A stretch of 64,000 bases of DNA. It comes from Escherichia coli 042. Its GTDB lineage: Bacteria > Pseudomonadota > Gammaproteobacteria > Enterobacterales > Enterobacteriaceae. Made by a program: the position numbers and the translations under genes. The notes under the pieces are model-generated. The model was not told the origin of the DNA and ran no database searches. It saw only the letters and a list, made by a program, of their open reading frames with translations. Below are positions 23,194-27,489 of this stretch, piece by piece. Position 1 is the stretch's first letter. Each line of letters begins with the position of its first letter. The stretch lies in the NCBI RefSeq assembly GCF_000027125.1, contig NC_017626.1. One strand, given 5' to 3'.

Positions 23194-23961
23194 TTATAGC
23201 GCCAGAACCGCCGTATTCAGCGTTTCTATCGGTGCCGGGCGTGAAAGAAACCAGCCTTGTGCGGCGAATGCGGGCGAGTTCTGAACATCACGCCACTCTT
23301 CCGGCGTTTCTACGCCCTCGACGATCACCCCGCGACAATAGCGATTCATGAGATGTAAAAGCTGAGAAAAGAGTGTGCGTCCTTCCGGCGACTGACGCAG
23401 CATCACAAACAGCTCTCGCGCGATTTTGATGTAGTCATAACGCACTTCACTTAGCGCAGAGAAATTTGCCATCCCGGTGCCAAAATCATCCAGCCACAGC
23501 GGGCCAAATTCACACATCGAGGCAAAGGTTGAATCTTTCGGCAGACGGATGTGTTCCACCAGTTCGAAACGCAGCCAGGGAAGACGCTCAATCTGGCGCA
23601 GGATTTTTGGTTGCTGACGCAGGGCGATGAGCGTAGGGCCATCAATATTGACCGATGCCAGCAGGTCGTGCTCTACAAAGAAGTCGGCTTTTTGCGCCAG
23701 CAAATCAATCTGCTCTTTCACAACCTCCATCCGATAGCTGACGGTGATTTCAGTAAAATAGCGATCCGGCGGCAGGCGTTGCGAAGGGTTCAAGGGATGC
23801 GTGACCACCGTTAATAGCTCCACGGCCATTAACCGCCCGCATGTTTGATAGATCGGCTGCCAGGTGTAAGCACGCTCACACTGCAACCAAAAACGCCGTT
23901 CCTGCAAGCTCTCGATGCTTGCTTCAGGGTTGCTTATTCGCTGGATAACCTGCCTTATCAT
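23194..23961 (-). CDS. pdeH: c-di-GMP phosphodiesterase PdeH (EAL domain)
   Basis: ORF 23194..24006 trimmed to the ATG at 23959-23961 (MIRQVIQRISNPEASIESLQERRF...); 255 aa; EAL-domain protein. Confidence 0.92.
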   Translation of the reverse strand: MIRQVIQRISNPEASIESLQERRFWLQCERAYTWQPIYQTCGRLMAVELLTVVTHPLNPSQRLPPDRYFTEITVSYRMEVVKEQIDLLAQKADFFVEHDLLASVNIDGPTLIALRQQPKILRQIERLPWLRFELVEHIRLPKDSTFASMCEFGPLWLDDFGTGMANFSALSEVRYDYIKIARELFVMLRQSPEGRTLFSQLLHLMNRYCRGVIVEGVETPEEWRDVQNSPAFAAQGWFLSRPAPIETLNTAVLAL

Positions 23962-24009
23962 CAAAGATGTCCTGTGTTTAAAAGTGATGCTGCCCGGACT
24001 CGACAAAGA

Positions 24010-24036
24010 TTATCGGCGCGCAAGGGCAGAACTTTA
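24010..24036 (-). promoter_or_regulatory. Sigma-28 (FliA) promoter for pdeH
   Basis: On the minus strand TAAAGTTC-N11-GCCGATAA (consensus TAAAGTTT-N11-GCCGATAA), about 40-50 nt upstream of the pdeH ATG. pdeH is a known class 3 flagellar gene. Confidence 0.65.
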
Positions 24037-24108
24037 CCGCCTGGCCGGGTTAAATTTCCCCACTCCACAACGGAATCTTTCAGGAATACGTTCTGGCTCA
24101 AAAAAATA

Positions 24109-24126
24109 ATGGAACACTGTTTTAAT
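24109..24126 (+). promoter_or_regulatory. Putative KdgR operator upstream of kdgK
   Basis: ATGGAACACTGTTTTAAT resembles the KdgR palindrome ATGAAACAnTGTTTCAT (about 15 of 17), about 70 bp upstream of the kdgK ATG. Confidence 0.4.
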
Positions 24127-24192
24127 ATGGTTGACCAGCAAACCACCACAGCGCAAACTAACGCTAATTTTTTACAGATCAGGTTCACGACT

Positions 24193-25122
24193 ATGTCCAA
24201 AAAGATTGCCGTGATTGGCGAATGCATGATTGAGCTTTCCGAGAAAGGCGCGGACGTTAAGCGCGGTTTCGGCGGCGATACCCTGAACACCTCCGTCTAT
24301 ATCGCCCGTCAGGTCGATCCTGCGGCATTAACCGTTCATTACGTAACGGCGCTGGGAACGGACAGTTTTAGCCAGCAAATGCTGGACGCCTGGCACGGCG
24401 AGAACGTTGATACTTCCCTGACCCAACGGATGGAAAACCGTCTTCCGGGCCTTTACTACATTGAAACCGACAGCACCGGCGAACGTACGTTCTACTACTG
24501 GCGTAACGAAGCCGCCGCCAAATTCTGGCTGGAGAGCGAGCAGTCTGCGGCGATTTGCGAAGAGCTGGCGAATTTCGATTATCTCTACCTGAGCGGGATT
24601 AGCCTGGCGATCTTAAGCCCGACCAGCCGCGAGAAACTGCTTTCTTTGTTGCGCGAATGCCGCGCCAACGGCGGAAAAGTAATTTTCGACAATAACTATC
24701 GTCCGCGCCTGTGGGCCAGCAAAGAAGAGACACAGCAGGTGTACCAGCAAATGCTGGAATGCACGGATATCGCCTTCCTGACGCTGGACGACGAAGACGC
24801 GCTATGGGGTCAACAGCCGGTGGAAGACGTCATTGCGCGCACCCATAACGCGGGCGTGAAAGAAGTGGTGGTGAAACGCGGGGCGGATTCTTGCCTGGTG
24901 TCCATTGCTGGCGAAGGGTTAGTGGATGTTCCGGCGGTGAAACTGCCGAAAGAAAAAGTGATCGATACCACCGCAGCTGGCGACTCTTTCAGTGCCGGTT
25001 ATCTGGCGGTACGTTTGACGGGCGGCAGTGCGGAAAACGCGGCGAAACGCGGGCACCTGACCGCAAGTACCGTTATTCAGTATCGCGGCGCGATTATCCC
25101 GCGTGAGGCAATGCCGGAATAA
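24193..25122 (+). CDS. kdgK: 2-dehydro-3-deoxygluconokinase
   Basis: ORF 23845..25122 trimmed to the ATG at 24193 (MSKKIAVIGECMIELSEKGADVKRGFGGDTLNTSVY...); 309 aa; PfkB sugar-kinase family. Confidence 0.93.
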   Translation: MSKKIAVIGECMIELSEKGADVKRGFGGDTLNTSVYIARQVDPAALTVHYVTALGTDSFSQQMLDAWHGENVDTSLTQRMENRLPGLYYIETDSTGERTFYYWRNEAAAKFWLESEQSAAICEELANFDYLYLSGISLAILSPTSREKLLSLLRECRANGGKVIFDNNYRPRLWASKEETQQVYQQMLECTDIAFLTLDDEDALWGQQPVEDVIARTHNAGVKEVVVKRGADSCLVSIAGEGLVDVPAVKLPKEKVIDTTAAGDSFSAGYLAVRLTGGSAENAAKRGHLTASTVIQYRGAIIPREAMPE

Positions 25123-25678
25123 TGGTTTTTGACGGAGAACGGGTAGATATTCGTTCTCCGTTAATCGCCTTGCAGGGGTGAACCGAACTATGCTGATAAT
25201 TTGAAGTAAACTGCTGACGCATATCATTCAAACTACGCGTAAATTTAAGCGGGTTCTCACCTTTAATTTCGACCGTGACGAAGACATTCCCATTGTTGTT
25301 AAAGAAGCCAAAATAATAGTCATGTTGATGACGACGATTGGTTTTAAATTGACGAAATGATAAATAGCAGCGGTTATCGTAGGTAATTAAAAAATCATTT
25401 TCTCCGTATTCGTTTATCATCTTATTTTTCAGGCTACCATCGAAGAGCACTGCATACTTATCTTTGTCAGCAAATAATTCGGCATCAGTTTCTCGGTTGA
25501 TCGTGTTGACGCTGATACCGAATTCTATTTTTACCTTGTCTTTATCGATATTATTTCTTGTGCTGACATACATATTATTGGCATCCCAGAGTAAGAGAAA
25601 GTTTTTGTTGCAGGAATAAAGACCTGTTAAGCAAAGAATGACTGTTAGCAAGAATAGTATGCGTTTTTTGTTACGCAT
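25094..25678 (-). CDS. Hypothetical lipoprotein (islet ORF A); 3' end reads across the islet junction into kdgK
   Basis: ATG at 25676-25678 preceded by AGGAG with 5-nt spacing; N-terminus MRNKKRILFLLTVILCLTGLYSC looks like a lipoprotein signal. The frame stays open across the junction near 25167 and ends inside the kdgK 3' end, so the native C-terminus may be truncated. Confidence 0.45.
   Translation of the reverse strand: MRNKKRILFLLTVILCLTGLYSCNKNFLLLWDANNMYVSTRNNIDKDKVKIEFGISVNTINRETDAELFADKDKYAVLFDGSLKNKMINEYGENDFLITYDNRCYLSFRQFKTNRRHQHDYYFGFFNNNGNVFVTVEIKGENPLKFTRSLNDMRQQFTSNYQHSSVHPCKAINGERISTRSPSKTIIPALPHAG
25133..25160 (+). terminator. Hairpin downstream of the kdgK stop (putative kdgK terminator)
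   Basis: Inverted repeat cggagaacg / cgttctccg starting 11 nt after the kdgK stop. Confidence 0.4.
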
Positions 25679-25739
25679 TTATACTCCTGAAAATGCGTTG
25701 AGGTCGCAAATATAATTAAATAGTCTGACATAAATAAAA

Positions 25740-26060
25740 TTAATTCCCTATCAATAATACATCTGCGACTTTTCTTGGTCCTTCGTAGATCTCAAATGCC
25801 TCGTACTTAGTCATCCATTGTTCAGGGGCGGTATCGAAAAGGAACTGAACGCACCCCATTGAAACGATACGTCCATCGGTTACATTAGGTTTTTCCAATT
25901 CAAAAACAACGCTCCATGCATTATTTTGCCAGTCAGTTTTCTCCTCTGGAAACCTGGAGACGGGATAATATCTACCGATAGGAGGTGCGCTCCTTCTGCC
26001 ACCTTCATTTTCTGTAAGCCAAACAACCTTTACACGATACATATGTTTCCATTCATTCAT
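25740..26060 (-). CDS. Hypothetical protein (islet ORF B, 106 aa)
   Basis: ATG at 26058-26060 lies 3 nt after the ORF C stop (TAA-TTA-ATG), suggesting translational coupling; no family recognised. Confidence 0.4.
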   Translation of the reverse strand: MNEWKHMYRVKVVWLTENEGGRRSAPPIGRYYPVSRFPEEKTDWQNNAWSVVFELEKPNVTDGRIVSMGCVQFLFDTAPEQWMTKYEAFEIYEGPRKVADVLLIGN

Positions 26061-26063
26061 TAA

Positions 26064-26543
26064 TTAAATTAAGTGTGAATTATATAATATTGCCACCCCA
26101 TGCGATCTTTCCCATTTTAGTCCATCAACTAATAATGATAGAAAAGAATACTGGAAGCTTATATTTTTAATCACTTCTATTTTTTCATCATCTAATGACA
26201 AGATTACCCACCCCCCGTAATTTTTGCTAACCAGGTTGTTAATAAATTTAATTATAGGATTGGTTGAAATATCCTTTCCTTTATTCACAGCCATTTCCAG
26301 GTCATCGACTAAAGAACCATTGAAGTTGTAAACATGATATTCATTAAAGTCTATGTGCTCATCTAAAGGTGGGCCATAAGTAATCGGTAGATTGCATCTC
26401 TGCAAAAGATGATGATTACACCAGGCGTATACCGGAGGGTCGCGATGAAAGGTTTCCCCACCCCAGTGAACCATAACCTCTTGTAGATCTAGTTCCTCTG
26501 GAGCGAATCGTGTAGGGAGTAAAATATCCAAGTGAAAATCCAT
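26064..26543 (-). CDS. Hypothetical protein (islet ORF C, 159 aa)
   Basis: ATG at 26541-26543 preceded by AGGATAGG; no recognisable motif; AT-rich codon usage. Confidence 0.45.
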   Translation of the reverse strand: MDFHLDILLPTRFAPEELDLQEVMVHWGGETFHRDPPVYAWCNHHLLQRCNLPITYGPPLDEHIDFNEYHVYNFNGSLVDDLEMAVNKGKDISTNPIIKFINNLVSKNYGGWVILSLDDEKIEVIKNISFQYSFLSLLVDGLKWERSHGVAILYNSHLI

Positions 26544-26642
26544 AGCCTATCCTAAATTTGGCACCCATAACATAAACTGTGTAAGAATCAACGACTGCCC
26601 CCCCAAAAATGGGAAAATTTACTTATTATGCAAAGTTACTTA

Positions 26643-26897
26643 TTAAGAAGCCCATTCCTCATTTTTTGGCAAATAGCCCTTTCGCCAACAGGTCAGAATC
26701 TTAAAACTCGCTCGCAAATAAAATTTATTAGCCGAATCGTTTTTAACCATTCTGACTAATGTCATCTCACCCGTTCTTTTATCTATCACGAACTCGCCGT
26801 AATCAGATCTACAATAGTCAGAAGATGTAGGTCCAAATTCATATTTTACTACTTTATCAGTTTCTTCAATTTTCAATATTTCTATATGATAGGCCAT
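26643..26897 (-). CDS. Hypothetical protein (islet ORF D, 84 aa)
   Basis: ATG overlaps the ORF E stop (TAATG, 26895-26899), a classic translational-coupling arrangement; no family recognised. Confidence 0.4.
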   Translation of the reverse strand: MAYHIEILKIEETDKVVKYEFGPTSSDYCRSDYGEFVIDKRTGEMTLVRMVKNDSANKFYLRASFKILTCWRKGYLPKNEEWAS

Positions 26898-27322
26898 TAT
26901 TTAACACCATCTATTGCCTGGCATCGTATACAGCTAAAACCAGTAGCTAAAATCTCAACATAACTATCATAACCTGCTATAATATAATGTTTTAACTTTA
27001 ACCGTTTTTTAGGGTCATATAATCTCTCTTTTTCTTCAAGCGGTACAGAATTCATTACTTGATATATACCGGAGTCCAGATTTTCACCATCAACCTTCTT
27101 AATAACAATATTGTTATAGTTGGCTTCATGAAAATTGACGGTAGCACACTTAACTTCAGCAACTGTAGTGAAGACCAGTTCAATTTGAACATAATCTTTC
27201 TCTGTTGATATTAACTCCAGAGCATCTACTTTAATGTTGACGCCATCAGACTCTGTATATGTTAAAGATAAATAAGTTGTGGAAATCCTGAATCCAATCG
27301 ATTGTGATTTTAACACAAGCAT
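26897..27322 (-). CDS. Hypothetical protein (islet ORF E, about 141 aa)
   Basis: ORF 26897..27346 starts at a GTG; the in-frame ATG at 27320-27322 (MLVLKSQSIGF...) has AAGGAG 7 nt upstream and is preferred. First gene of the minus-strand cluster. Confidence 0.45.
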   Translation of the reverse strand: MLVLKSQSIGFRISTTYLSLTYTESDGVNIKVDALELISTEKDYVQIELVFTTVAEVKCATVNFHEANYNNIVIKKVDGENLDSGIYQVMNSVPLEEKERLYDPKKRLKLKHYIIAGYDSYVEILATGFSCIRCQAIDGVK

Positions 27323-27489
27323 AAACTCACTCCTTCCAGTAGGCACAGGTATAATTTATTCAGCTAATAAATAATTAAACCCACTCTACGGTAAGTTTAT
27401 TTTAATAATGAATGGTTATCTGCGCGCTACCGCCGTGCCCGGAAAAATATCTGCGGTTATATCACGGTAACTAATTTATTACCGTTAAT

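Follow-up and report, generated by a model that had tools for sequence, protein, structure and literature searches.

A KdgR-type operator in the pdeH-kdgK spacer of Escherichia coli 042

The pdeH-kdgK locus

The window is the whole 64,000-nucleotide stretch of Escherichia coli 042 DNA that was analyzed (contig NC_017626.1, assembly GCF_000027125.1). It includes kdgK, a plus-strand gene at 24193-25122 that encodes 2-dehydro-3-deoxygluconokinase and whose product matches the Pfam PfkB family (E = 1.5e-73). Transcribed away from kdgK is pdeH, a minus-strand gene that encodes a c-di-GMP phosphodiesterase with a Pfam EAL domain. Comparison with MG1655 places the start of pdeH at 23961 and that of kdgK at 24193, and the divergent genes are separated by a spacer of 231 nt.

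This spacer contains the imperfect 21-bp dyad TAATGGAACACTGTTTTAATA at 24107-24127, referred to here as the KdgR box. Its center, C24117, precedes the kdgK ATG by 76 nt. The left half-site is TGGAAC (24110-24115, plus strand), and the right half-site is GTTTTA on the plus strand (24119-24124), which reads TAAAAC on the minus strand. Each half-site has one mismatch to the consensus TGAAAC. Between them is a variable 3-nt center (24116-24118), which is ACT in the window and AGC, GTT, GAT, GTC or others in other loci. An earlier note on this DNA had pointed to an 18-mer, ATGGAACACTGTTTTAAT, as a KdgR-like operator. The 18-mer is found in the window at 24109-24126 and is slightly off-center with respect to the full dyad. 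In MG1655, the box has the identical sequence and is located at NC_000913.3 3679333-3679353. Of 5426 complete E. coli genomes, 5422 match the ~1.1 kb around the box, and the neighboring genes are annotated there as pdeH and kdgK.

On the pdeH side of the spacer, a sigma-28 (FliA)-type promoter, TAAAGTTC-N11-GCCGATAA, is located on the minus strand at 24010-24036. Both elements are in conserved blocks of an alignment of 81 sequences. The promoter agrees at 15 of 16 positions with the class-3 flagellar consensus.

On the kdgK side, a sigma-70 promoter scan of the region reported none at the scan threshold, and the kdgK promoter was instead deduced from invariant columns of the same alignment. 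The putative -35 element is TTGACC (24131-24136, plus strand), which matches TTGACA at five of six positions and whose first five bases (TTGAC, 24131-24135) are invariant in the 81 sequences. The putative -10 element is CAAACT (24154-24159, plus strand), where C24154, A24155, A24157 and T24159 are invariant. The resulting CAnAnT pattern is exactly 17 nt downstream of TTGACC and keeps the critical A at position 2 and T at position 6. Transcription of kdgK would then start near 24166 and generate a 27-nt leader. The supplements of genome-wide start-site and promoter papers yielded no measured start site for kdgK, and a literature search for "kdgK promoter" returned nothing.

Relative to this predicted start, the KdgR box spans approximately -59 to -39, with its center at -49. 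It had been claimed that the box overlaps the kdgK promoter. This is true of the upstream zone, where the alpha C-terminal domain (alpha-CTD) and UP contacts would be made, and of the edge of the -35 element, but not of the putative sigma-70 core hexamers. The box ends 3 nt before TTGACC and therefore adjoins the putative -35 element without overlapping it. Directly upstream of the box is an A-tract, CAAAAAAA (24099-24106, plus strand), that is nearly invariant in the 81 sequences, with CAAA and A24104 fully so. The A-tract may act as a UP-like element, bend the DNA or provide an outer contact for the operator.

Downstream of kdgK, the window differs from K-12. A low-GC islet (25094-27346, minus strand) is located between kdgK and yhjJ, with a GC content of 0.35-0.39 compared to ~0.52 in its flanks. 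The islet contains five small hypothetical ORFs of 194, 106, 159, 84 and 149 amino acids, the first of which overlaps the 3' end of kdgK by 29 nt. K-12 MG1655 lacks the islet, and 95 nt separate kdgK from the following yhjJ in that strain. Searches of the five ORFs found no Pfam or PADLOC match, and the ORFs are annotated as "hypothetical protein" in NZ_AP022298.1.

Motif strength and conservation of the box

The dyad TAATGGAACACTGTTTTAATA is complementary at seven of its 10 arm pairs. The description of the site as a near-palindrome is thus accurate, but palindromy alone is within chance: the 64-kb window holds 266 equally palindromic 21-mers, two of them in the spacer, and palindromy was rejected as evidence for the site. 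An inverted-repeat search with an exact 6-nt seed did not report the KdgR box because its arms are imperfect.

The KdgR consensus is AAATGAAACAnTGTTTCATTT, as quoted from Rodionov 2000/2004 in a passage of PMC5559549. The box matches this consensus at 15 of 20 positions and is the single best match in the window, which bears out the resemblance proposed earlier from the sequence. The closest known sites are the KdgR boxes of the enterobacterial KDG/pectin regulon, which include those of kdgT, kduI-kduD, tabA/yjgK and ygjV in E. coli, and those of pel, ogl, kdgK and kdgT in Dickeya. Like these, the kdgK box is a 21-bp A/T-rich dyad with TGAAAC-type half-sites 3 nt apart. It is positioned 5' of a gene of the 2-keto-3-deoxygluconate (KDG) pathway; mutation of kdgR derepresses this gene, and KDG induces it. 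It also differs from them. The kdgK box is weaker than the kdgT, kduI and tabA boxes (15/20 compared to 17-19/20); it has one mismatch per half-site, and its outer flanks deviate from the consensus. kdgK has a single box and kduI has two. Unlike the other KdgR boxes, that of kdgK would be just upstream of the -35 element and not over the core promoter.

A position weight matrix (PWM) was trained on five boxes of E. coli K-12 (MG1655) and their reverse complements, and the kdgK box was excluded from the training. The five boxes, taken from MG1655 upstream regions, match AAATGAAACAnTGTTTCATTT at 17/20 (kdgT), 19/20 and 17/20 (the two kduI boxes), 17/20 (tabA) and 13/20 (ygjV). They were chosen by their likeness to the consensus, so that the PWM, although independent of kdgK, is still tied to the consensus. 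The PWM is our own surrogate and is distinct from the curated KdgR matrix. The eda and edd genes were left out because they have only weak matches (12/20). Among the MG1655 stretches scanned upstream of eda, edd and yeeO, which are reported targets of KdgR and/or PlaR, consensus matches are weak and reach at most 12/20. The eda site may be degenerate or outside the stretches scanned.

The earlier note had suggested scoring the region with a KdgR PWM. On the surrogate matrix, the kdgK box scores 20.9 bits, compared to 21.6-30.1 bits for the other E. coli KdgR boxes. The runner-up in the whole window reaches 11.6 bits, and no other position in the spacer exceeds 2.1 bits. In a Markov-1 null of 5 Mb, ~2e-7 of positions reach 20.9 bits, which corresponds to ~0.013 expected per window and makes the PWM the decisive sequence test against chance. 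As the sole credible box of the spacer, the site is presumably also the curated KdgR site of kdgK. The spacer was also searched for a second, tandem KdgR box and for a CRP site, and neither was found. With no tandem box in the spacer, a single dimer site is therefore the simplest reading.

Conservation was assessed with one genome per species. The comparison comprises 80 kdgK loci from ~25 genera of Enterobacteriaceae, including Escherichia, Citrobacter, Salmonella, Enterobacter, Klebsiella, Kluyvera, Kosakonia, Lelliottia, Leclercia and Atlantibacter, and the window brings the alignment to 81 sequences. All 80 comparison species are Enterobacteriaceae with a KdgK identity of at least 86%. A protein search aimed at Dickeya, Yersinia and Serratia gave only close relatives, with at least 87% identity, among the matches listed. 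The pattern GGAAC-N3-GTTTTAA is present in all 80 species, at -74 to -84 from the ATG. In the alignment of the 200 nt upstream of kdgK, the invariant runs are GGAAC (24111-24115) and GTTTTAA (24119-24125), while the dyad center varies freely, with A and G both occurring at position 24116, C and T at 24118 and all four bases at 24117. The top base has a mean frequency of 0.998 in the arms; the corresponding values are 0.74 for the center and 0.72 for the remaining upstream region. The half-site arms are reverse-complementary at five of six positions. Invariant arms around a free center are the signature of a dimeric helix-turn-helix operator. Purifying selection on the site is strong and dyad-shaped, and the invariance of the arms in 81 sequences, around a variable center, places the site clearly beyond chance.

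The box is also stable within the species. Of 5426 complete E. coli genomes, 5331 (98%) have an identical copy of the 34-mer that spans the box and the adjacent TTGACC (24105-24138). E69 (L001), SCPM-O-B-8794 (L002) and ~90 other E. coli genomes vary in the 34-mer. In the two named strains, the difference is confined to the dyad center, which is AGC in the former and GGC in the latter compared to ACT in the window. One Salmonella locus (L025) has the same KdgR box as the window.

Two readings of the site do without a repressor. The box could be a chance match to an A/T-rich consensus, since a 15/20 match is expected 0.46 times per dinucleotide-shuffled 64-kb window and is weak by itself, and palindromy at seven of 10 pairs is common. 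In shuffles of the 186 nt upstream of kdgK (24007-24192), however, only 0.3% contain a 15/20 match (P = 0.003). The PWM null and the conservation of the arms across 80 species effectively refute a chance match, and the published genetics of kdgK as a KdgR target also argue against it, which leaves this reading with a negligible probability. The conservation could otherwise reflect promoter architecture alone, either a UP-like A/T-rich element or the -10-like TAATAT at 24123-24128. The A/T-rich region at approximately -40 to -60 of the putative promoter is the UP-element zone, and TAATAT matches TATAAT at four of six positions. Yet a dyad-shaped constraint with a free 3-nt center is not expected from a UP element or from a -10 hexamer, and the same motif is found upstream of kdgT, kduI and tabA. 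Moreover, TAATAT has no -35 partner 16-18 nt upstream, and the promoter scan found none. Promoter architecture without a repressor is thus extremely improbable as the source of the footprint.

KdgR and PlaR as ligands of the box

The box is very probably the operator through which KdgR, a repressor of the IclR family, controls kdgK. Motif, position, conservation and the presence of the regulator in the species, the features of a KdgR operator that were tested, were all found. The kdgR gene is located outside of the window, and its presence was therefore assessed at the level of the species, where 5424 of 5426 complete E. coli genomes encode it. KdgR is composed of an HTH_IclR domain and an IclR_C domain. 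Sites of IclR-family regulators cluster at -20 to -80 from the gene start (PMC8222616), and the center of the kdgK box at -76 fits this range. E. coli kdgK is not listed in the supplements of that paper.

Published genetics connect KdgR to kdgK. In E. coli, kdgK mRNA is increased in a kdgR deletion mutant, as observed by Northern blot (PMC6958661), and an evolved strain without kdgR overexpresses kdgK and kdgT (PMC6892915). In Salmonella Typhimurium, KDG strongly induces kdgK, whose expression is undetectable when KDG is absent, and a kdgR deletion mutant expresses the gene constitutively (PMC4784465). Both kdgT and kdgK are named as known KdgR targets (PMC6892915), and these target genes are said to contain a KdgR box, with citation of Rodionov 2000/2004 (PMC6958661). 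The literature searched yielded no footprint, gel shift or ChIP for direct binding of KdgR at the E. coli kdgK site, and none of the full-text papers searched prints the sequence of the box, either as in the window or with a variant center. The repression of kdgK by KdgR that the earlier note had proposed is supported by the motif, the PWM score, the position, the footprint and the genetics of kdgR mutants.

A second regulator also binds DNA of this region in vitro. PlaR (YiaJ) is an IclR-family paralogue of KdgR and is 34% identical to it. In work done by Shimada et al., kdgK is among the gSELEX targets of PlaR, and a probe labeled "pdeH/kdgK" is shifted by PlaR in a gel shift (PMC6958661, main text and Table S1). 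The primers of this probe map to 23955-23974 and 24158-24180 of the window, and the probe contains the KdgR box. The PlaR box, ATnTGAAACnnnGTTCAnTT, has the same half-site type and spacing as the kdgK box (PMC6958661), and the kdgK half-sites are compatible with it. The target lists of PlaR and KdgR also overlap and share kdgK, kdgT, kduI, eda, tabA and ygjV (PMC6958661). Another operator of the family is that of IclR itself at aceBAK, TGGAAATNATTTCCA (PMC8222616, Table 1). Like the kdgK box, it is palindromic, A/T-rich, bound by an IclR-family repressor and located in the upstream part of the promoter, but its half-site sequence, spacing, effector and regulon are different.

These data could be read to mean that the box is mainly a PlaR operator and that KdgR acts on kdgK only indirectly. 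The gSELEX result, the shift of a probe that contains the box and the resemblance of ATnTGAAACnnnGTTCAnTT to the KdgR box would fit such a role, and indirect effects are conceivable because plaR mRNA is increased in the kdgR deletion mutant (PMC6958661). On the other hand, the genes reported as raised in the plaR deletion mutant do not include kdgK, which is increased upon deletion of kdgR, and the gel shifts used micromolar PlaR (PMC6958661). On the KdgR-type PWM, the strongest site of PlaR itself, located between plaR and yiaK, reaches 8.8 bits, compared to 20.9 bits for the kdgK box, and Salmonella kdgK is inducible by KDG through KdgR (PMC4784465). A main role for PlaR is therefore very unlikely. 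The same low probability applies to the proposal that the box regulates the divergent pdeH, instead of or besides kdgK. The box is in the spacer that the two genes share, and the PlaR target is labeled "pdeH/kdgK" (PMC6958661), but the distance from the pdeH -35 element upstream to the box is 71 nt, which is beyond the usual range for repression, and the genes reported as overexpressed in the absence of kdgR do not include pdeH (PMC6892915).

KdgR appears to be the main ligand of the box, and PlaR probably also contacts it in vitro. PlaR is treated as a plausible secondary ligand because of the 8.8-bit score of its own site, the micromolar protein in the gel shifts and the lack of a reported rise of kdgK in the plaR deletion mutant. 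Co-binding by PlaR is compatible with control by KdgR, and we hold it tentatively, at slightly less than an even chance.

Repression of kdgK and significance of the site

A KdgR dimer would bind the half-sites TGGAAC and TAAAAC, with three non-contacted bases between them. When bound to the box, ~49 nt upstream of the predicted start and beside TTGACC, KdgR would hinder the docking of RNA polymerase. The hindrance would probably affect sigma region 4 at the -35 element as well as the alpha C-terminal domains, which would contact the A/T-rich DNA between -40 and -60. Upon accumulation of KDG, which binds KdgR, the repressor would leave the DNA and kdgK would be transcribed. The promoter position, the dimer stoichiometry and the steric step are inferences, the last because the box is off the putative -35 and -10 hexamers and the start site is itself a prediction.

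The interaction of KdgR with kdgK is already known and is textbook knowledge, and the site is real but not new. The kdgK promoter in the window is the standard one of E. coli, under the control of KdgR. The result is mainly one of annotation: the site is refined to the 21-bp dyad at 24107-24127, with a putative promoter directly downstream. Pipelines for finding operators could use the clean footprint across 80 species and 5426 E. coli genomes as a positive control.

With its center at approximately -49, the box could be a shared two-input operator for KdgR and PlaR that blocks alpha-CTD/UP contacts instead of the core hexamers, that also modulates the motility and c-di-GMP gene pdeH, or both. 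This is improbable, with only a small chance of being correct. If true, a two-input operator that also affects pdeH would couple the sensing of plant sugar acids to c-di-GMP turnover.
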